Assembly (NCBI GenBank): GCA_963719785.1 | Contig: CAVRCX010000007.1 | Span: 243,414 to 307,413, forward strand | Direction: 5' to 3' | DNA from: Terriglobia bacterium | Lineage (GTDB): Bacteria; Acidobacteriota; Terriglobia; Bryobacterales; Bryobacteraceae | DNA length: 64,000 bases | Part shown: piece by piece, positions 6,801 to 32,560 of the stretch | Numbering within the stretch: position 1 is the first letter of the stretch | Layout: each line of letters opens with the position of its first letter | Notes under the pieces: generated by a model | The model's input: only the letters and a program-made list of their open reading frames with translations | Told to the model about the DNA's origin: nothing | The model's database searches: none | Program-made: the position numbers and the translations under genes

Positions 6801-7022
6801 CTAATGCGCTTTCCTCAGCTCCTCGATCGAGGTCTCACCCAGGCAAAGCCGCTCCGCATCGAGGAAAGTCAGCGGCAGGCCATCCACAAGAAGTTTCGTC
6901 AGTCCCTCGTTGGGCAAAAGATCCACCTGCCCGAACCGTCGTTCCAGACATCGGACAAGCTGCTCCATATTCAGGGGCCGGTCCACGGGATTGAGCGGCC
7001 TGTCAATAGGCAATCGACTCAC
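6801..7022 (-). CDS. Small hypothetical protein (73 aa), possibly a DUF433-like helix-turn-helix protein. Its start and stop overlap the upstream pilin gene.
   Basis: The ORF shares 4 bp with the pilin gene (7019..7022), which implies co-transcription. The C-terminal LPLTFLDAERLCLGETSIEELRKAH is DUF433-like. Weak call. Confidence 0.3.
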   Translation of the reverse strand: MSRLPIDRPLNPVDRPLNMEQLVRCLERRFGQVDLLPNEGLTKLLVDGLPLTFLDAERLCLGETSIEELRKAH

Positions 7023-24076: not shown

Positions 24077-24428
24077 TCGGCTTTTTACGTGTCGCCGATT
24101 ACTCATTCAATGTGGGACAGGCGGAAGCGCGTCTCCGATTAGGATCACAGGCGAATCCTGCAGCGAATTCAGGAATTGCCACGATTGATGCTTCGTCTGT
24201 GACAGTGCCGGCCAGCCGCGGGGCCACATAATGTAAGGCGCGTCGGCACGATCAGCTCGGGCGCGCCGCCGAGAAACTCCATCGAGCGGATTGGCCGCCG
24301 ATCCAGTGCTCCAGTTCCGGCCACCGTATGCGTCACGGTCACCGTGACCCCGCTGGCGATCACGTAAGTCCAAGGCATCTGCCAGGATATCGGCCCTTCC
24401 ACCGTCACGCTCGAATGCGCCGTATGGG

Positions 24429-24842
24429 CTAAAACTCGATCACGTTCAGGTTCGGAATCATGCGAAAGTGCCGGAGATTCCGCGTACCGATCCCATAGCC
24501 CAGGTGAAGGGCGGTTACTCCGATGAGCAGGTCCTCGAACGGGATCGACAGCCCGGCCCGTTTCGCGTCGGCGTCGATTTTCGCCGCAAGCTGGCCCATC
24601 TCCTTTGTGAACGGTTCCACAGGAATGGCGAGGAAGCCGGTATCGAGGTACGCCCGCCGCTGCCGTGCCAGTGCCTGAGTATTGGCGCGATGCAGACCGT
24701 GTTCCAGTTCGATCACGGTAATCGACGAGATGACGACCTCGGTTTCTCCGTGCTTCTGTTCGAGTTCCAGCAACATAGCGCTGACCGGTTTGGCGCCACG
24801 CTCGGCGGCGATCAGAACGCTAGAGTCGAGGACTAACCCCAT
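24429..24842 (-). CDS. vapC: PIN-domain toxin VapC
   Basis: MGLVLDSSVLIAAERG... with the conserved acidic residues (D6, E42-like and the ...IGVTAL... region). It sits 4 bp downstream of the antitoxin gene. The true start is at aa 42 of the listed ORF. Confidence 0.8.
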   Translation of the reverse strand: MGLVLDSSVLIAAERGAKPVSAMLLELEQKHGETEVVISSITVIELEHGLHRANTQALARQRRAYLDTGFLAIPVEPFTKEMGQLAAKIDADAKRAGLSIPFEDLLIGVTALHLGYGIGTRNLRHFRMIPNLNVIEF

Positions 24843-25120
24843 GCCGGCGGCTGGAAGGGCGCACGACGGAAATCGATGGCAGCCTGCACGTCTCTGGCGA
24901 AATCCTGATCGGGAACCGGCGCGCAGCCCAACTCCTCTTCGTGCGCCTTCGCCAGATCGATGCACTCCGAGAGCTTCCGTCCCGGACCCGGCGTCGGCGT
25001 CTTGATGACAGCCACAGGGCGATGATCCTGCTCGACGATCACCTCATCGCCTTCCCCCACTCGCGCCAGCACGGCACGAGGGTCGCTGGCGAGCTCGGCT
25101 TCTGTAATACGGACCGTCAT
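24833..25120 (-). CDS. vapB: Phd/YefM-family antitoxin (VapB-type partner of VapC)
   Basis: MTVRITEAELASDPRAVLARVGEGDEVIVEQDHRPVAVIKTP matches the YefM/Phd N-terminal fold pattern. The likely start is the second Met. Confidence 0.7.
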   Translation of the reverse strand: MTVRITEAELASDPRAVLARVGEGDEVIVEQDHRPVAVIKTPTPGPGRKLSECIDLAKAHEEELGCAPVPDQDFARDVQAAIDFRRAPFQPPAWG

Positions 25121-26327
25121 CCTGTCTTCGATCATAGCGCTTATGGCAGAGAACTTTGCAGAGGATTTCGTTTGTCTGCGCGGTCGGCGTCTTGGATCGG
25201 ACCGCTGGCCCGAACTTCCGCTTCAGCATGGAGAACGTGGACTCCACGTTCGACCGCTTGTGGTAGTGCGCCAGAAACTCATCCCGCTTGAAGTGGTAGA
25301 AGCGCCACATCTTCGTCCAAATTTCCGCGCCCTGAGCTTTATTGGTCGATTTGAAGGAAATGAACGGTACTGCACCGACTTGCTCAATTGCGCCGAAATT
25401 CATGTTGCTGACGTAACCTTTGTCTGCCGAAACTTCGGCGATGTTGAAGCGTTCTGCTGTTCTTCGCACCAGGGACGGCAAATACGGACAATCGTTAGAA
25501 TCGCCGTCGCTGATCGTAACGCTGCTTATGACGTTGGTTTTCACGCCCGTAATGACGTGTGCCTTGCGCCACATCCGACCCGTTCGCTTCTTGCCGTGCT
25601 TCTCATCAAACCAGCGGACGAACGTGCACGTAGAGAACCCGGAGCTGTCAACTGCGAAGTCCGTCTCGACGGCCTTCAGCGGGCTTGCACTTTCTTCGAT
25701 CATCTTTCTCAGGACCGGCGTCAGCCTCGGATCTCCCAAGTAATTGAAGATCGAATTGTAGTGCGGCGCGGATTCGATGTGGCCTTTCTCTTCGCACTCA
25801 TGAATATCGGTCGAGGCGCGGCGTCCGCTCATCGTGCTGTAGACCTTCATTGTGGCCGCAAAGATCACGTCAGCGAGTGGAAGGCGCGGACGCCCGCGCT
25901 TCTGTTCTGGTTGCATAACACCTTCGCACAGAGCCTTCAGGAGTCGCTCGACCGTCGCCTTTTCTGTGACCTGAGCGGCGTTGTACGCTGGCCAGTTCTG
26001 CTGGTAGGTGACGCGCATAGTGCGCGTCTCGGTCGTCGTGCCGTCTGCGTTCGTCTCACGCTTTATCGTGAATTCGACCGCGTAAATGTGCTTGCAGCGC
26101 TCTTGGTGGGCCTCGTAATCAGGGCACGAACAAGTCGGCCTTTCCCCTGCAACAGCGACGGTGTATTTTCGACCGCCGACGGTTTGGGATGGGACTGTCC
26201 AGATGTTTCCGTTTTTCGCCAGCCGCGTTGTTGCGGCGATCATCAATCCGCGCTGTTCTCTTCCGTTTTCCATTTCAGTCCTGTTGCTTTCTTCAGGCTG
26301 AAACGACAGAATGGAAGTGGAGAGCAA
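25044..26327 (-). CDS. IS transposase with an N-terminal SWIM-type zinc finger and a DDE_Tnp_1 (IS4/IS5 superfamily) catalytic domain. Its C-terminal 30 or so aa read through the IS end into vapB DNA.
   Basis: CSCPDYEAHQERCKHIYAV is a SWIM zinc finger of the CxCxnCxH type. ...DKGYVS...NVESTFSMLKRKFG... is the DDE_Tnp_1 C-terminal signature. The ORF tail (KRYDRRQDDGPYYRSRARQRP...) overlaps the vapB 5' region by about 90 nt. Confidence 0.85.
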   Translation of the reverse strand: MLSTSILSFQPEESNRTEMENGREQRGLMIAATTRLAKNGNIWTVPSQTVGGRKYTVAVAGERPTCSCPDYEAHQERCKHIYAVEFTIKRETNADGTTTETRTMRVTYQQNWPAYNAAQVTEKATVERLLKALCEGVMQPEQKRGRPRLPLADVIFAATMKVYSTMSGRRASTDIHECEEKGHIESAPHYNSIFNYLGDPRLTPVLRKMIEESASPLKAVETDFAVDSSGFSTCTFVRWFDEKHGKKRTGRMWRKAHVITGVKTNVISSVTISDGDSNDCPYLPSLVRRTAERFNIAEVSADKGYVSNMNFGAIEQVGAVPFISFKSTNKAQGAEIWTKMWRFYHFKRDEFLAHYHKRSNVESTFSMLKRKFGPAVRSKTPTAQTNEILCKVLCHKRYDRRQDDGPYYRSRARQRPSCRAGASGGRR

Positions 26328-26395
26328 ATCCCTTCCTCTGGCTTCGGCCTGAGGTTGAACCCCGCTGATAGCGTCAACTATTGGCGGGGTGTATC
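25140..26395 (-). mobile_element. Insertion sequence of about 1.25 kb (IS4/IS5-superfamily-like) inserted immediately upstream of vapBC. Boundaries are approximate.
   Basis: A single transposase gene. Imperfect terminal inverted repeats are found only weakly, around GCAGAGGATTT at about 25160 and AAATCCCTTCCTCTGGC at about 26372. The left boundary is inferred from where the transposase ORF runs into vapB. Confidence 0.45.
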
Positions 26396-26401
26396 GTTGT
26401 A

Positions 26402-26477
26402 TGGAGCGCTGGGACGGATTCGAACCGTCGTCTCACAGCTTTCCGGGCCAGGCGACTTACCTCTTGTCCACCAGCGC
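26402..26477 (-). pseudogene. tRNA-like element (76 nt) that is probably a degenerate tRNA or a tRNA-derived integration-site remnant. It has a perfect acceptor stem, T-arm and CCA but no foldable anticodon arm.
   Basis: The reverse complement reads GCGCTGG-TG-GACAAGAGGTAAGTCG-CCTGGCCCGGAAAGCTGT-GAGAC-GACGGTTCGAATCCGTC-CCAGCGC-T-CCA. It has a 7-bp acceptor stem, a 5-bp T-stem with a consensus GTTCGAATC loop, and an encoded CCA, but the D-stem and anticodon stem are poor. It abuts the IS right end. Confidence 0.45.
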
Positions 26478-26486
26478 TCAAAATCA

Positions 26487-26987
26487 TCAACCAGCGTTAC
26501 TTTTGTCGCTAAGGGTTTCCACGTCAAGTTCAACTTCGTCCGTTTCTATCCCTTCATCCCAGCGAAGATCGTTGTCGTTCCACGGGACATAGTCGTTGAT
26601 CGCGTACAGTTTCCCGCGATTGTCCTCACGGATAGCCGCTACCCGTTTCAGAATCGCGTGGAGAACCGCGCCTGGATTCGTGTAGCCGCTCATATCGATG
26701 CCTATGCGCGAAAGCATGTCGCGGAATTCCGGTATCGTGACCCACCTGTTTGCCTTCGTCAAAACATCCCGACAAATCTGCGTAAGTCCGGCGTCAACGA
26801 GAACTTTACCTGGGTCTTGTTCGATCAGCGGAACGATTGCCTTAAGGAACTCATTGAGACTTCCCATCCGACTCTCGATCCATTCAAGCCTTTCCGTAAT
26901 CTTTCCTCTCTCGTTGCCCAGTTGGGCGAGTTCCGACTGCGCGGCCCTGTAGGATTCCTCGTGGGGATTCTTATAAGTTATGGCCAT
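26487..26987 (-). CDS. Hypothetical protein (166 aa) with an N-terminal coiled coil, in a low-GC region
   Basis: ATG start. It ends 10 bp before the tRNA-like element. GC is roughly 50-52%. No recognisable domain. Confidence 0.45.
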   Translation of the reverse strand: MAITYKNPHEESYRAAQSELAQLGNERGKITERLEWIESRMGSLNEFLKAIVPLIEQDPGKVLVDAGLTQICRDVLTKANRWVTIPEFRDMLSRIGIDMSGYTNPGAVLHAILKRVAAIREDNRGKLYAINDYVPWNDNDLRWDEGIETDEVELDVETLSDKSNAG

Positions 26988-27003
26988 GTAGGTACTTTAC
27001 AGT

Positions 27004-27213
27004 ATGTCTAAACCAAAGTCAAGAGTTCCAGATATTATTTTAGACAGATTGCAAAACAGCGATCTGACGTGGGATGCCGTCATCCGCGAGGCCGAGTTCG
27101 AAATCAACTCAGCACGGCAACGAATTTCAGACCTGAAATATTCAATCGAAGTATTTCGTAAGCGGAAACATGCTGGAGATCCATATCCGGCGGGGAAGGG
27201 GACTGGAGCCTAA
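27004..27213 (+). CDS. Hypothetical small protein (69 aa), divergent from the preceding gene
   Basis: MSKPKSRVPDIILDRLQNSDLTWDAVIREAEFEINSARQRISDLKYSIEVFRKRKHAGDPYP. Low GC. Weak call. Confidence 0.3.
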   Translation: MSKPKSRVPDIILDRLQNSDLTWDAVIREAEFEINSARQRISDLKYSIEVFRKRKHAGDPYPAGKGTGA

Positions 27214-27279
27214 TGTGTGGATTTTTGGGGCAAACCGATGACTTTATGGGCAACCGATCATTCTTAGGCAAAGCCCCCC

Positions 27280-27324
27280 TTGACAACCATCACAAATTGC
27301 AATACTGTAATCACAGATTGCAAT
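27280..27324 (+). promoter_or_regulatory. Sigma-70-like promoter (TTGACA, 17-bp spacer, TACTGT) with two copies of the perfect palindrome ATTGCAAT, 21 bp centre to centre. This looks like an autoregulatory operator for the downstream XRE regulator.
   Basis: ccTTGACAaccatcacaaATTGCAATACTGTaatcacagATTGCAATatg. Palindrome 1 overlaps the -10 hexamer and palindrome 2 abuts the ATG. Confidence 0.45.
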
Positions 27325-27801
27325 ATGCGTTTGGGTGAAAAGATTCGTTATCTGCGGGAGGTGGAGGGCGCGCTGCGTGGCCTTGATCGCGCCATGACCC
27401 AGCAAGAGGTCGTCCGGGCCATCAAGAAAGACCTGAAAAAGCCGCTCTCGCAGTCGTATCTTTCGCAGATTGAAAGCGGCGCGCGGCCGCATCTGACTAA
27501 CACCAGCCGCATGCTGCTGGCGAAATTCTTCAAAGTCCACCCAGGCTATCTGGTGGACGATCCGGAGGGTTATTCGACCGAGCTGCTTTCCGACGTGGGC
27601 GCGCTCGAAGACAAGCTGGATCTGTGGCTGGTCAGCGGCGCGGAGCGGTTTCGCAACGATCCGGAGGTCTGCGCGGCATTACTGGCCGTGGCCAAACATC
27701 CGGATTCGCGACGCTGCCTGGTAGTGCTGAATTTGATTCTCGAAAATCCGGGGCTGGCGGACCGGCTGTTCGAAGTCCTGCGGCCAAAGGAAATTCTATG
27801 A
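27325..27801 (+). CDS. XRE-family helix-turn-helix transcriptional regulator with a C-terminal domain of unknown function
   Basis: MRLGEKIRYLREVEGALRGLDRAMTQQEVVRAIKKDLKKPLSQSYLSQIESGARPHLT is a helix-turn-helix (HTH_3/XRE) domain. The true start is at aa 16 of the listed ORF. Its stop overlaps the NfeD-like gene start (ATGA). Confidence 0.75.
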   Translation: MRLGEKIRYLREVEGALRGLDRAMTQQEVVRAIKKDLKKPLSQSYLSQIESGARPHLTNTSRMLLAKFFKVHPGYLVDDPEGYSTELLSDVGALEDKLDLWLVSGAERFRNDPEVCAALLAVAKHPDSRRCLVVLNLILENPGLADRLFEVLRPKEIL

Positions 27802-28364
27802 CGTGGGAGACGTTTTTTCTCGGCTGTTTCGCGTTTGGTTTCGTGCTGAGCCTGATTGCATTTGTGGCGGGATCCGCTCATCTGCATTTGCACATGCACC
27901 ATGGGGCGCATATCGCCCACGGGCATGGCGCGGGGCACGGGGGCGGCGGAGTCTCGAAGTTCAACTTCGGAACCATCGCCGCGTTTCTCACATGGTTCGG
28001 CGGGGCCGGTTACGTTCTGAGCAGTTGGGGCCGGATTGGTCTGTTTCTGGTGCTGGTAATTGCGGCCATCACCGGAATCGCGGGCGCGGCGGTGATCTTT
28101 CTTTTCGCCGCCAAGGTGCTGGCTCCGGGCGACAAGGCGCTCGATCCGGAAGATTACCGGATGATCGGCGCGCTGGGCAAAGTTTCGAGCCCGGTGCGGG
28201 CCAACGGGACGGGCGAAATGATTTTTGTGCAACAAGGCCGGCGCGCGGGTGTGCCCATTCGCAGTGAAAATGGCCAGCCGATCGCGGCCGGTAAAGAAGT
28301 CGTGGTGACGCGCTACGAGCAGGGCATCGCCTATGTGCGCGAGTGGGATGAGATGACCGCCTGA
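27798..28364 (+). CDS. NfeD-like membrane protein (OB-fold C-terminus) with a His-rich loop
   Basis: Two or three transmembrane helices, a His-rich stretch HLHLHMHHGAHIAHGHGAGHGGGG, and a C-terminal beta-rich segment ...EMIFVQQGRRAGVPIRSENGQPIAAGKEVVVTRYEQGIAYVREWDE typical of NfeD short-form partners of SPFH proteins. AAGGAAA Shine-Dalgarno upstream. Confidence 0.75.
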   Translation: MTWETFFLGCFAFGFVLSLIAFVAGSAHLHLHMHHGAHIAHGHGAGHGGGGVSKFNFGTIAAFLTWFGGAGYVLSSWGRIGLFLVLVIAAITGIAGAAVIFLFAAKVLAPGDKALDPEDYRMIGALGKVSSPVRANGTGEMIFVQQGRRAGVPIRSENGQPIAAGKEVVVTRYEQGIAYVREWDEMTA

Positions 28365-28383
28365 GTGCGGCTAAAGAGGAGCT

Positions 28384-29808
28384 ATGAATCCGATTCAGAT
28401 TGTAATTGTCGTAGCGCTGATGGCGCTGGCGCTGATGTTCCTGATCGGCGTGTTTGCGCGGCTGTTTCGCAAGGCTGGCCCGCATCAGGCGCTGATCGTC
28501 TATGGTTTTCGCGGCACGCGAGTGATCAAGGGCCGCGGCACGGTGATATTTCCCATGATGGAAAATTGCCGCGAATTGTCGCTCGAACTGATGTCGTTCG
28601 ACGTCGCGCCCCAACAGGATCTCTACACCATGCAGGGTGTCGCGGTTACGGTGGAGGCGGTAGCGCAGATCAAGGTGAAGTCCGATCCGGAATCGATCCA
28701 GACGGCGGCGGAGCAGTTTCTGACTAAGTCGGATCAGAATCGCGAGGCGCTGATCCGCCTGGTGATGGAAGGACATTTGCGGGGCATTATCGGCCAGCTT
28801 ACGGTGGAACAGATTGTGAAAGAGCCGGAGATGGTGGGCGATCGGATGCGCAATACATGCGCGGGCGACATGACCAAGATGGGCCTTGAGGTGATCTCAT
28901 TCACCATCAAGGAAGTTCGCGATAAGAACGAATACATCGCCAACATGGGACGGCCCGATATCGCCAGGGTCAAACGCGATGCCGACGTGGCGACCGCCGA
29001 AGCGGAACGCGACACAGCCATCAAACGCGCGCATGCCTTGCGCGAAGCCGCTATCTCGAAGGCGCAGGCGGATCAGGAGCGTGTGCTGGCGGAAACGCTG
29101 TCGTTGGCCAAGCAATCGGAAGCGCAGCGCGATCTGGATGTCAAGAAAGCCGAATTCCTGGAATCGGTGAAGCGGCAGCAGGCGCAGGCCGATAAGTCGT
29201 ATGAGATCCAGACCAACGTCATGCAGCAGCAGGTGGTGGCCGAACAGGTCAAGATCATGCAGATCGAAAAGGAGCATGAAATCCTCGTGCAGGACGCGGA
29301 AATTCAGCGGCGCGAACGCGAGCTGATCGCAACGGTGTTGAAGGGCGCGGAGATCGAACGGCGTCGCATCGAGACACTGGCTTCGGCCGAAAAGCAGAGA
29401 CAGATCTCCGTTGCCGAGGGTCAGGCGGCGGCGACGCGCATGCAGGGCGAAGCGGAAGCGGAAATCACTTTCAAGAAGGGCGACGCCGAGGCGCGCGCCA
29501 TGAACGTGAAAGCGGAGGCTTATCAGGAATACAACCAGGCGGCGGTTATCGACAAGCTCATCAGCAGCATGCCGGAGATTGTGAGAGCGCTGGCGGCGCC
29601 GCTGCAAAACGTCGATAAGATCACCATCGTGTCGACTGGCGGGGATACGGCGGGGATGAATAAGTTAACCGGCGATCTGACTAAGATGGCGGCGCAGGTT
29701 CCGGCACTGTTCGAAACGCTGTCGGGAATGCAGATGTCGGAGTTATTCGCACGAGTCAAGGGCATTGGCGAAAAATCACCGAAGCCCGGGGAAGAAAGTA
29801 AGTCATAA
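28384..29808 (+). CDS. Flotillin-like SPFH / band-7 protein (FloT/YqiK-like)
   Basis: An N-terminal transmembrane helix, an SPFH domain, then a long Glu/Ala/Gln-rich coiled-coil flotillin region (...AEAERDTAIKRAHALREAAISKAQADQERVLAE...). AAGAGGAG Shine-Dalgarno upstream. Confidence 0.9.
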   Translation: MNPIQIVIVVALMALALMFLIGVFARLFRKAGPHQALIVYGFRGTRVIKGRGTVIFPMMENCRELSLELMSFDVAPQQDLYTMQGVAVTVEAVAQIKVKSDPESIQTAAEQFLTKSDQNREALIRLVMEGHLRGIIGQLTVEQIVKEPEMVGDRMRNTCAGDMTKMGLEVISFTIKEVRDKNEYIANMGRPDIARVKRDADVATAEAERDTAIKRAHALREAAISKAQADQERVLAETLSLAKQSEAQRDLDVKKAEFLESVKRQQAQADKSYEIQTNVMQQQVVAEQVKIMQIEKEHEILVQDAEIQRRERELIATVLKGAEIERRRIETLASAEKQRQISVAEGQAAATRMQGEAEAEITFKKGDAEARAMNVKAEAYQEYNQAAVIDKLISSMPEIVRALAAPLQNVDKITIVSTGGDTAGMNKLTGDLTKMAAQVPALFETLSGMQMSELFARVKGIGEKSPKPGEESKS

Positions 29809-29820
29809 GGGAGTACGAAC

Positions 29821-30483
29821 ATGGCACTACTGGAAAGAGTCGGCACGCTGCTGCGCGCCAATCTGAACGACATTATCGACCGGGCGGAAGAGCCCGAGAA
29901 GATGATTAAGCAAGTGATTCTGGATATGGAGAATCAGTTGATGCAGGTCAAGACGCAGGTGGCGATCAGTATTGCCGATCTTCACCTGCTGGAGCGGCGG
30001 TCGAGCGAAAATCTGCAGAAGCGCGATGAGTGGATGCGGAAGGCGGAACTGGCGGTAGCGAAGCAGCAGGACGATCTGGCGCGTATCGCCATTGAGCGAT
30101 CGCTCGAATCGAAGAAGCTGGCGGCGAGTTTCGATGAGCAGATCGCCGATCAGAAACAGCAGGCGGAAAATCTGAAGACGGCGCTTCATAAGCTCGATGG
30201 GAAGCTGGCAGAGGCGCGGGCCAAGAGCGAATTGCTTTTGGCGAAGCACCGGCGGGCGCGGGCGGCGGTGCGCGCGGCAGACGCGCATGAAGGCATCAAT
30301 GAGAATGCGGTTTCGTCGGCGTGGGATCGGATGAATCAGAAAGTGAACCGGGCCGATGCGGTGAGCCAGGCGCGCACGGAGTTGTTGGGGGATAACGTGG
30401 ACGATCAGTTTGCGGCGCTCGAGAAGCACGATGAGGTGGAGCGGCTTTTGGCTGGGCTGAAATCGAAAAAAGAGGTAGCGTAA
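29821..30483 (+). CDS. pspA: PspA/IM30 family protein (phage shock protein A-like)
   Basis: MALLERVGTLLRANLNDIIDRAEEPEKMIKQVILDMENQLMQVKTQVA is the canonical PspA N-terminus. It is coiled coil throughout. Confidence 0.9.
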   Translation: MALLERVGTLLRANLNDIIDRAEEPEKMIKQVILDMENQLMQVKTQVAISIADLHLLERRSSENLQKRDEWMRKAELAVAKQQDDLARIAIERSLESKKLAASFDEQIADQKQQAENLKTALHKLDGKLAEARAKSELLLAKHRRARAAVRAADAHEGINENAVSSAWDRMNQKVNRADAVSQARTELLGDNVDDQFAALEKHDEVERLLAGLKSKKEVA

Positions 30484-30536: not shown

Positions 30537-31412
30537 TTATTGCTTCACCACTAAACGGAGGAACGCGTCGGCGGCATAACTTACCGCGCGGCGTGAAGGC
30601 TGCACGAGGTAGATCTTGCGCTCCACCTCGACTTCGGGCACGCGTACTGCGACCAGGCGTTTTTCGGCGATCTCCTGCTCGACGCACATGCGCGGGAGGA
30701 AGGCGACGCCGGCGTCCTGCTCCACCATCCAGCGAATGGTCTCAACGGTGGGCATTTCGACATCCATGTTGAGAGGGATGCCGCGTTCCTGGAAGGCGCG
30801 GATGACAATTTCGCGGTAGGGCGAGAGGACGTTGTGGGCGATGAAAATCTCTTCGCCGAGTTCCGTGATCGGCACCTCGTGGCGCGCAGCGAGGCGATGC
30901 TGGGGCGACACGACGAAGGCCAGGGAATCGGAATAGATGACGTTCGAGAGGATCCGTTCGTCGCGCGGCTCGTAGCTGATGACGCCGAGTTCAAGATTTC
31001 CGTCGATCAGTTCGTCGGGAATGCGGCTGGAGAAACTGCGCTTGATCTGCACCTTGACGCGCGGATAGAGGCGGCGGTAATGCTCGATGTGGCGCAACAG
31101 ATATAAGGCCGTGGATTCATTGGCGCCGATGACGAGTCGTCCTGCCGAGTGGTCCCGCAGCTCCGCGATAGAGTTCTGCAATTCGGCTTCGAGATTCTGA
31201 AAACGGCGCGCGAATTCGAGCACGGTGCGGCCGGCATCGGTGAGCAGAACATCTTTGGCGGAACGATCGAGCAGGCGCTCACCCAGTTCGCTCTCGAGGC
31301 GCTGCAGGGCGAGAGAAACGGCCGGCTGCGTACGAGCGAGCTTTTCCGCGGCGCGGGAAAAACTGCGCTCGTTGGCAACCGTCATGAATACGCGGAGGGT
31401 GCTTAACTCCAT
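30537..31412 (-). CDS. LysR-family transcriptional regulator
   Basis: N-terminal helix-turn-helix LSTLRVFMTVANERSFSRAAEKLARTQPAVSLALQRLE plus a LysR substrate-binding domain. Confidence 0.9.
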   Translation of the reverse strand: MELSTLRVFMTVANERSFSRAAEKLARTQPAVSLALQRLESELGERLLDRSAKDVLLTDAGRTVLEFARRFQNLEAELQNSIAELRDHSAGRLVIGANESTALYLLRHIEHYRRLYPRVKVQIKRSFSSRIPDELIDGNLELGVISYEPRDERILSNVIYSDSLAFVVSPQHRLAARHEVPITELGEEIFIAHNVLSPYREIVIRAFQERGIPLNMDVEMPTVETIRWMVEQDAGVAFLPRMCVEQEIAEKRLVAVRVPEVEVERKIYLVQPSRRAVSYAADAFLRLVVKQ

Positions 31413-31441: not shown

Positions 31442-32560
31442 TTACTTACCCCGGAGCGTCACCGTACGCGAGAGTAACTCGTCGAATCCGCCGACCACGG
31501 TGAACTTCTCCACCTTGTCGGCGATCTTCTCGAGGGTCTCGAGTTCCTTCATCCGAACCAACAGAGGGTTATCCTCCATCAGCTTCGCCGTGTTCAGAAG
31601 CGACCGCGTGGCGGCCGTCTCTTCGCGCCGGCGGATCAGGTTGGCCTGCGCCTGCTTTTCCGCCGTCACTACCTGGTTGAGGATGTCCCGGATATCGCCG
31701 GGCAGGATGATGTCCTTGAGAGCGATCGCGCCCACGCGAACACCATACAACTCCATCTCGCGGCGCACTTCAGCCGACACCAGTTCATCGATGTCGGCCT
31801 TCTCCGCGAGCACCTCTTCAAGGGTGCGCTTGCCGAGCGTCTGCCGCACCGCGATCTGCAGGGTGCGGTACAGGTGCTCGCTCACGTCCTTCACGGTGGA
31901 GCGCGCGGTCGAGACATTGACAATCTCGTACACGCCTACCACATTTACGCGAATGGTGACCTTATCTTTCGTCAGGATCTCCTGACCTGTCACCTCTACC
32001 GTTTGCCGGCGCATCTCGACGATCTCGATGCGAGGCGTCGCCAGCACGTTCCAGTAGCCGAACGTACCGGCGCCGATTTCCCCCGTCAGCCGCCCATCGA
32101 GATACACCAGGCCGCGCTTACCTTCATCCACCACGGCGAAGGTTACGCCGGACTCCCGGCCGAGGCGGGCCAGCGCGGGCAACATGCGCGCGGGCACCTC
32201 GGGAGTGTCGCCCACTTCAATCAGATCGAAGGCGATGGAAACGGCCCCGCGCCAGTAGAGCGCACGGGTGCTGGGCGCGACCACGCGGAGCAACTTACCA
32301 TCCGCGTAGACCGCGGCCACATGAGTGGGGGAGGTCTCGATGACGGTGAAGTAACGGGCCGCCAGTTCGGGCCGCTCCGTTACGATGAAATCCGCCCAGT
32401 CGCTCGAGAATACCAATGACTTGATGTTGTGCCGCTCCAGCTGGATGTCGCGCCCCAACACGAACAGCCAGTACTTGCCGGGCGCCATGATATCGGCAAA
32501 ACGCTTGTTTCGAATGAGCAATACACGCTCGTTGTCTCCAACTAATACACGCCGCAGCAT
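31442..32560 (-). CDS. SPFH / band-7 (stomatin/prohibitin-like) domain protein with an N-terminal extension
   Basis: A central SPFH domain (...VTIRVNVVGVYEIVN...) and a C-terminal coiled coil. It is the second SPFH-family protein within 4 kb. Confidence 0.8.
   Translation of the reverse strand: MLRRVLVGDNERVLLIRNKRFADIMAPGKYWLFVLGRDIQLERHNIKSLVFSSDWADFIVTERPELAARYFTVIETSPTHVAAVYADGKLLRVVAPSTRALYWRGAVSIAFDLIEVGDTPEVPARMLPALARLGRESGVTFAVVDEGKRGLVYLDGRLTGEIGAGTFGYWNVLATPRIEIVEMRRQTVEVTGQEILTKDKVTIRVNVVGVYEIVNVSTARSTVKDVSEHLYRTLQIAVRQTLGKRTLEEVLAEKADIDELVSAEVRREMELYGVRVGAIALKDIILPGDIRDILNQVVTAEKQAQANLIRRREETAATRSLLNTAKLMEDNPLLVRMKELETLEKIADKVEKFTVVGGFDELLSRTVTLRGK

Follow-up and report, generated by a model that had tools for sequence, protein, structure and literature searches.

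A conserved regulator-NfeD-flotillin-PspA operon of Terriglobia, probably a membrane-maintenance system of the phage-shock-protein type

In Bacillus subtilis, the genes for FloA and FloT and the pspA-ydjGHI operon belong to the sigma-W membrane-stress genes, and PspA is directed to the membrane by YdjI, an SPFH protein (PMC8581546); yuaFGI depends on sigma-W as well (PMC2636767). For Acidobacteriota, a network of PspA, band 7/FloT, NfeD and helix-turn-helix (HTH) proteins has been predicted, with a band 7_Flot neighbour for 11 of 19 PspAs (Popp et al. 2022, mSystems, PMC9239133). Operons that combine PspA with a transmembrane (TM) band-7-flotillin and a YqiJ/YuaF protein have also been described, the pairs of flotillin and YqiJ/YuaF alone being more widespread (Ravi et al. 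2024, PMC11237479), and in Actinobacteria a ClgR-like HTH protein occurs with PspA (PMC11237479). Here we compare with these systems a locus at positions 27,325 to 30,483 of a 64,000-nucleotide stretch of contig CAVRCX010000007.1 (hereafter, the window), from a member of the Bryobacteraceae (Acidobacteriota, Terriglobia). Its four genes encode a regulator with a likely XRE-like HTH, an NfeD-type membrane protein carrying a His-rich loop, a flotillin that would act as scaffold, and PspA/IM30 (Table 1), and we find that they form a real operon, shared by hundreds of soil Acidobacteria and with a probable role in membrane maintenance.

An earlier reading made from the letters of the DNA (the sequence-only reading) had held that NfeD, flotillin and PspA under a dedicated XRE repressor look undescribed. 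This claim has to be withdrawn: the network of Popp et al. comes from the same phylum and has the same domain set as the window operon, and PspA-flotillin-YqiJ/YuaF operons were reported by Ravi et al. The four-gene architecture has thus been reported before, in silico and at the level of domains, and the locus is of a known kind rather than a new system. The new elements are matters of detail, namely the operators, an HTH resembling that of EspR, a regulator cistron with almost no leader, and the His loop as a trait of the whole family; they make the system tractable for experiments but leave its category unchanged. The network of Popp et al. is a domain-level consensus from 19 PspAs that includes no operators, regulator subtype, His loop or experiments, whereas the present analysis covers 80 species and records a fixed order (XRE-NfeD-flotillin-PspA), two operators and the loop. 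The proteobacterial operons of Ravi et al. (e.g., the Pseudomonas aeruginosa bac cluster, PA3732-PA3729) likewise link PspA to a flotillin and a YqiJ/YuaF-type NfeD protein with three TM segments, but their first gene encodes a CesT/Tir-like chaperone (DUF2170) and not an XRE-type protein, their gene order differs, an AAA+ ATPase or phospholipase D may be added, and they have a putative sigma-54 site.

Similar parts are found in B. subtilis, where yuaF-floT(yuaG)-yuaI holds an NfeD2-flotillin pair, pspA-ydjGHI joins PspA with an SPFH protein, and the two are co-induced by membrane stress; YuaF is, in addition, the best structural match of the window NfeD protein. However, these are two separate operons under an extracytoplasmic function (ECF) sigma factor, whereas the window has one operon with a dedicated HTH protein; furthermore, YdjI has no membrane anchor, and neither YdjG nor YdjH is related to NfeD. 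In Escherichia coli, YqiJ can be aligned over its full length to the window NfeD protein (23% identity) and YqiK along the length of the flotillin (24% identity, E=6e-19), but the yqiJ-yqiK operon contains neither a regulator nor PspA. The clgR-pspA-pspM-pspN operon of Mycobacterium tuberculosis likewise has a small XRE-like (cHTH) regulator as the first gene of a PspA operon, and feedback linking this regulator with PspA has been proposed (PMC11237479). It contains neither flotillin nor NfeD, however, and the window operon lacks PspM and PspN. The closest solved relative of the window HTH is EspR and not ClgR, although homology to ClgR was not itself compared.

That the four genes constitute an operon is indicated by their packing and by the constancy of their order. 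As the sequence-only reading had it, they are co-directional and tightly packed, on which the list of open reading frames (ORFs) and our reading of the junctions agree. In the window, the regulator and NfeD genes overlap by four nucleotides (a junction of -4 nt, ATGA), the NfeD and flotillin genes are 19 nt apart, with AAAGAGGAG ahead of the flotillin start, and the flotillin gene and pspA are 12 nt apart, with AAGGGAG ahead of the pspA start. The strong Shine-Dalgarno (SD) sites claimed for the operon are present for flotillin and PspA, but the regulator gene has none, an operator adjoining its ATG.

The proposed survey of gene neighbourhoods, carried out by tblastn with the four window proteins, revealed a strict cassette: the order regulator-NfeD-flotillin-PspA, on one strand, was recovered in 71 of the 71 loci with enough DNA (the other 11 end at contig ends), with median junctions of -4, 33 and 48 nt. 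Databases contain more than 8000 homologs of the regulator; the best 120 (82-98% identity) come from Acidobacteriota, Terriglobia, Bryobacteraceae, and the regulator is encoded in at least 584 genomes in a scan of one genome per GTDB species. With the exception of one bin labelled Binatia, all of the 80 loci inspected belong to Terriglobia (Bryobacterales and Terriglobales). The nearest relative is a Bryobacteraceae metagenome-assembled genome (MAG) with 99% identity, and cultured or named carriers include Silvibacterium bohemicum (strain S15) and Acidobacteriaceae KBS 83, to which a Granulicella sp. MAG can be added. Across loci, the regulator (70-99% identity) and flotillin (65-98%) are the most conserved of the four proteins, ahead of PspA (46-95%) and NfeD (39-90%). 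In four long-read MAGs (L006, L061, L067 and L081), matches to flotillin, PspA or NfeD are truncated or frame-shifted (e.g., the L061 NfeD gene has in-frame stops, and the L006 PspA match covers residues 1-112 only); these broken genes are probably assembly errors rather than pseudogenes.

The region just upstream of the regulator gene reads, in order, TTGACA, ACC, the operator O1 (ATCACAAATTGCAAT), TACTGT overlapping O1, a single A, the operator O2 (ATCACAGATTGCAAT) and the ATG. Each operator is an imperfect 7-1-7 palindrome of 15 bp with the consensus AT-YRCA-N3-TGYR-AT, and both sites were found in 76 of 83 distinct related promoters, where positions A1, T2, C5, G11, A14 and T15 are invariant. 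In 75 of those 76, O1 and O2 start exactly 21 bp apart; in 51, O2 runs right up to the ATG; and most have a TTGACA-like hexamer (5-6 of 6 matches) 2-4 nt 5' of O1. The -10 hexamers of relatives read TATAGT, TATTGT or TATGAT. The motif occurs 155 times at the related operon promoters as opposed to twice, in weak form, elsewhere in 0.99 Mb of related loci, and a pattern search of the 64-kb window located it only at the operon promoter, with no further copies in the window or inside the cassette. We did not find these sites described in the literature searched. Since one operator lies in the spacer and the other covers the start point, which is a classic arrangement for repression, the suggestion that the operon is autoregulated is plausible, and the separation of the sites by two helical turns (21 bp) suggests cooperative binding by two dimers.

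The expected leader of the regulator cistron is only about 10 nt long and has no SD site, and translation of the regulator is probably weak relative to that of flotillin and PspA. In most Bryobacterales, the ATG comes directly after O2 (the 51 of 76 promoters noted above). Some Terriglobales (e.g., L020) have a longer regulator leader with AAGGAG instead.

The regulator itself is a divergent protein. Its scores lie below the Pfam gathering scores for both HTH_3 (PF01381; 17.8 bits, with a cut-off of 23) and HTH_31 (16.9 bits, with a cut-off of 27), and a precomputed PF01381 match is attached to a few of its close homologs. Because the HTH_3 score was below the cut-off, its identity as an XRE-like HTH protein needed extra evidence, and this came from a profile of 24 regulator sequences, which matches the HTH of M. 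tuberculosis EspR (PDB 3qwg, 3qf3, 4ndw) at residues 25-80 with E=8e-5. The two proteins share YLSQ(I/L)xSG in the region of the recognition helix and a tail of the form FF(K/R)(V/I)...Y...DD, and it is likely, judging from these sequence matches, that the regulator has an XRE-like HTH fold. Both have the same two-part layout, an N-terminal HTH followed by a C-terminal helical domain (predicted in the regulator), but only the HTH aligns: beyond residue 80, the EspR profile comparison yields no similarity, and the C-terminal ~80 residues of the regulator match nothing. EspR, moreover, is a global nucleoid-associated regulator of ESX-1 without a link to Psp or flotillin genes.

The sequence-only reading had described an XRE regulator with a sensor-like C-terminal domain of roughly 100 amino acids. 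Its XRE-like HTH finds support in the match to EspR, but the domain after the HTH spans about 80 amino acids, and no sensor domain was recognised in the regulator, for which Pfam and NCBIfam gave only sub-threshold matches or none. This part of the protein is more likely to be a dimerisation or partner-binding domain than a demonstrated sensor.

If the regulator receives no signal at all, the locus could be a housekeeping membrane-microdomain operon under homeostatic autorepression, in which the regulator does no more than buffer the expression level. A repressor that is encoded by the first gene and acts on its own operon would suffice to explain the operators, the cassette is near-universal in its clade and sits among housekeeping genes, and the lack of a recognised sensor domain would be expected. 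Nevertheless, we regard this explanation as unlikely: every characterised PspA system, as well as the flotillin operons of B. subtilis, is stress-induced (PMC8581546, PMC11237479), and the C-terminal ~80 amino acids of the regulator are very strongly conserved, which suggests that they do more than dimerise.

The NfeD protein, too, received only sub-threshold matches or none from Pfam and NCBIfam. Because its score with PF01957 (16.1 bits) is below the gathering score of 29.1 bits, its identity needed a match of folds, its profile giving a sub-threshold E=0.076 with YuaF from the PDB. In the AlphaFold2 (AF2) model, residues ~120-185 form a C-terminal beta-barrel (OB-fold) with predicted local distance difference test (pLDDT) values of 83-91, and the top five Foldseek matches of the model are YuaF (6.8e-6), YbbJ of the QmcA-YbbJ complex (9.4e-5), 3cp0, MTH693 and PH1510-C; all are NfeD-type or NfeD-like OB domains, the fourth (MTH693) having been deposited as an unannotated protein. 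Precomputed homolog annotations, on which the assignment to PF25842 (NfeD_TM) rests, include a match to this family on 120 of the 120 listed NfeD homologs, among them the 98%-identical P0121. Hydrophobic segments lie at residues ~5-27, 59-77 (moderately hydrophobic) and 82-105. The NfeD2 subtype is defined by three N-terminal hydrophobic segments and by a gene directly 5' of an SPFH2/flotillin gene (Hinderhofer et al. 2009, PMC2636767), and the window protein has both features, the flotillin gene coming next in every locus. Taken with the PF25842 matches on homologs, the OB-fold match and the full-length alignment to YqiJ, this identifies it as a YuaF/YqiJ-type (NfeD2) partner of an SPFH2 flotillin.

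The most conspicuous feature of this protein is its His-rich loop, for which the sequence-only reading had counted 12 His in 24 amino acids; the stretch, HLHLHMHHGAHIAHGHGAGHGGGG, is indeed there, but direct counting gives 9 His in 24 amino acids, and there are 9 His in the whole window protein. In 79 orthologs, the loop is 14-54 amino acids long (median 30) and contains 2-13 His (median 8); outside it, the protein has a median of one His. At least five His are present in the loops of 75 of these 79 orthologs, which agrees with the expectation that the loop be conserved. Overall, ortholog loops are 26.5% His and 17.6% Gly and have no Cys, with a core of the form H-LHLPHLHxHHGxHxPH in which H-x-H recurs. 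Given the three-segment topology and an OB domain in the cytoplasm, the loop, which is disordered in the AF2 model, is probably cytoplasmic and juxtamembrane.

The same feature extends to distant relatives. A profile search of 1.84 billion cluster representatives returned 1817 clusters (697 at E<=1e-10), and of the 126 full-length proteins in the best 150, 90 have at least five His within the 30 amino acids after the first segment. The representative P0359 seeded a homolog search that reached distant NfeD contexts, including a Chloroflexota branch in which the loop is rich in His and Asp, with GHDIHxD repeats; here, as in the pairs noted by Ravi et al., an NfeD-flotillin pair stands without regulator or PspA, directly 3' of dnaX-ybaB (L085, 5001-7189; L087, 5001-7453). 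At the corresponding position, E. coli YqiJ carries a weaker form of the loop that contains 5 His and 3 Asp. We thus rejected the idea that the loop is lineage-specific noise, since its composition is kept across orthologs and distant clusters, and because the Chloroflexota pairs carry it without regulator or PspA, it is a conserved trait of a broad NfeD2 subfamily that is not specific to this operon. A literature search for NfeD with 'histidine-rich' found no papers. Separately, three cluster representatives (P0241, 501 amino acids; P0267, 509; P0376, 645) contain an NfeD region with several hundred extra residues, N- or C-terminal, and may be real fusions or gene-calling artefacts.

A loop of this composition raises the question of metals, and the operon could be a metal-homeostasis or metal-sensing module, in which the loop binds Zn, Ni, Cu or Fe, the regulator reads metal status, and flotillin and PspA protect the membrane. 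The high His content with recurring H-x-H, maintained while loop length varies from 14 to 54 amino acids, is in keeping with this idea, as are the GHDIHxD repeats of Chloroflexota, which are typical of metal ligands, and the His and Asp residues retained by YqiJ. The rest of the operon does not conform to it: the loops lack Cys, the cassette has no metal transporter or metallochaperone, its variable flanking genes are not metal-related, and Pfam, NCBIfam and the EspR profile recognised no metal-binding motif or metal-sensor family in the regulator. Because the loop exists in Chloroflexota without regulator or PspA, it would be a property of the NfeD2-flotillin unit and not of operon signalling, and with no metal genes linked to the cassette, metal sensing is possible for the loop but weak for the operon as a whole. 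A metal module is, in our estimate, improbable.

The remaining two proteins fit their families without difficulty, both scoring well above Pfam cut-offs as the sequence-only reading would lead one to expect. The flotillin exceeds the cut-offs for Band_7 (99.3 bits) and Flot (39.5 bits) and has a hydrophobic N-terminal anchor (IVIVVALMALALMFLIGVF); it belongs to the SPFH2 flotillins (FloT/YqiK type), though its score with the FloT model (323.9 bits) is below the equivalog cut-off of 700. PspA reaches 113.9 bits with PspA_IM30 (PF04012; cut-off 33.9), its residues 3-217 spanning positions 2-218 of the 220 in the profile. It belongs to the family without matching E. coli PspA or LiaH at the ortholog level, with scores below the equivalog cut-offs of TIGR02977 (129.7 vs. 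242.95 bits) and NF007974 (91.4 vs. 336 bits). The cassette and its conserved neighbours encode no PspF-type AAA+ activator and no PspB/PspC, the rest of the genome not having been searched.

Outside the cassette, flanking genes vary between lineages. The sequence-only reading had added that a LysR regulator and a second SPFH protein follow immediately, and both genes are present, convergent to pspA; but LysR adjoins the operon in no more than five close loci, and the second SPFH gene does so in the nearest relative (L005) alone, so we rejected them as parts of the module and treat them as lineage-specific neighbours. In L001-L003, a PEMT/ICMT methyltransferase gene and a 45-amino-acid ORF lie between pspA and LysR. 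Upstream, positions 24077-27275 form a 3.2-kb block that is absent from the closest relative, L005 joining 6907 to 6952; this insertion ends about 5 nt 5' of the operon -35 and leaves the promoter and operators intact. The PIN toxin and insertion sequence (IS) genes that it carries were accordingly rejected as operon context.

These neighbours matter for another explanation, by which the cassette would be an anti-phage (abortive-infection-like) defence system with an XRE-type switch on a mobile island. XRE regulators often head defence or prophage modules, PspA was named for its induction by a phage secretin, and in the window the PIN toxin and IS lie directly upstream. However, that mobile DNA belongs to the insertion just described, and vertical conservation in at least 584 species, in varied chromosomal contexts, is unlike the patchy distribution of defence islands. 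We rejected the defence idea since PADLOC gives no match for any of the four proteins, and consider it very improbable.

Table 1. Features of the operon, its promoter and its surroundings (positions in the window).
Feature	Position	Strand	Details
XRE/EspR-like regulator gene	27325..27801	+	158 amino acids; ORF list
Regulator, HTH domain			residues ~1-80
Regulator, C-terminal domain			residues ~81-158; all-helical (helices predicted)
NfeD2-type (YuaF/YqiJ-like) membrane protein gene	27798..28364	+	188 amino acids; ORF list
His-rich loop HLHLHMHHGAHIAHGHGAGHGGGG	27879..27950	+	residues 28-51, between hydrophobic segments 1 and 2
Flotillin (SPFH2 / FloT-YqiK type) gene	28384..29808	+	474 amino acids; ORF list
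PspA/IM30 (bacterial ESCRT-III) gene	29821..30483	+	220 amino acids; ORF list
-35 hexamer TTGACA of operon promoter	27280..27285	+	read from sequence
Operator O1 ATCACAAATTGCAAT	27289..27303	+	pattern match; in -35/-10 spacer, overlaps first base of -10
Putative -10 hexamer TACTGT	27303..27308	+	read from sequence; 17-nt spacer
Operator O2 ATCACAGATTGCAAT	27310..27324	+	covers expected transcription start, abuts ATG
LysR regulator gene	30537..31412	-	291 amino acids; convergent to pspA
Second SPFH/Band_7 gene	31442..32560	-	372 amino acids; long N-terminal extension, convergent to pspA
PIN toxin	24429-24965	-	inside 3.2-kb insertion
Phd/YefM-like ORF	24833-25135	-	inside 3.2-kb insertion
IS transposase, DDE_Tnp_1 + SWIM	25044-26327	-	inside 3.2-kb insertion
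Unannotated ORF	26487-26987	-	inside 3.2-kb insertion
Unannotated ORF	27004-27213	+	inside 3.2-kb insertion

The explanation that we favour, and consider probable, is that the operon is the Terriglobia version of a membrane-maintenance operon of the phage-shock-protein type, transcribed from one sigma-70-type promoter that is repressed by the product of the first gene. By analogy, a role in membrane stress, as already put forward in the sequence-only reading, fits what is known of NfeD-flotillin pairs and of PspA. Under this model, two EspR-like HTH dimers would bind O1 and O2 cooperatively and occlude RNA polymerase, and the SD-less, nearly leaderless cistron would keep the level of the regulator low. 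The NfeD2 protein, with its OB-fold in the cytoplasm, and the flotillin would form an SPFH cage or microdomain at the inner face of the cytoplasmic membrane, like QmcA-YbbJ and FloT-YuaF, to which PspA, as an ESCRT-III-like polymer, would be drawn, sealing or remodelling membrane that is damaged and leaks protons; in B. subtilis, YdjI recruits PspA in a similar way. The most speculative steps concern the inducing signal and its route to the regulator. Here we favour partner switching, as in PspA-PspF and PspA-ClgR. In the unstressed cell, PspA or NfeD/flotillin may contact the conserved C-terminal domain of the regulator and so keep the regulator in a repressing state; under stress, PspA would move to the stressed membrane and repression would be relieved. 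We also favour a role for the His loop, which may titrate protons or a divalent metal at the membrane surface.

Several observations count against this model of a repressed, stress-responsive operon. The -10 hexamer of the window (TACTGT) is weak, and because it matches only 3 of 6 consensus positions, a consensus promoter scan did not call the operon promoter on the + strand; a consensus terminator scan likewise found no terminator 3' of pspA. Because intergenic gaps reach 277-1093 nt in a few Terriglobales, internal promoters are possible. The AF2 model of the regulator, from an alignment of 24 sequences, has a mean pLDDT of 49.7 and is unusable for a fold search, and it is from position only that we infer the first gene product to be the operator binder. 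As for the NfeD protein, the sidedness of the loop is uncertain, in that segment 2 is only moderately hydrophobic and, in the model, a single helix takes in segments 2 and 3. Finally, the function of the operon in an envelope-stress response is something that we infer from homology and context.

An extension of the membrane-maintenance model, which we put forward as a doubtful one, assigns the loop a part in signalling: present in many copies in a flotillin cage, it would be a sensor of proton leak (local pH) or divalent metal, whose charge state controls the recruitment of PspA and, via the C-terminal domain of the regulator, de-repression of the operon. If this were true, the signalling logic would be distinct from that of PspF/PspBC, LiaFSR and ClgR, and would suit acidophilic bacteria of soils, in which the pH gradient across the membrane is large.

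Terriglobia rank among the most abundant bacteria in soil, and the upkeep of their membranes in acidic soils is, to our knowledge, almost unexplored by experiment. The cassette is among their most conserved small operons (the regulator being 70-99% identical across two orders) and offers several handles for testing: a defined promoter and its two operators, a putative repressor, carriers that are in culture, and a conserved His loop, the last of which is a general and unremarked feature of YqiJ/YuaF-type NfeD proteins. As such, it lends itself to studies of how flotillin/NfeD cages work together with the ESCRT-III-like PspA.

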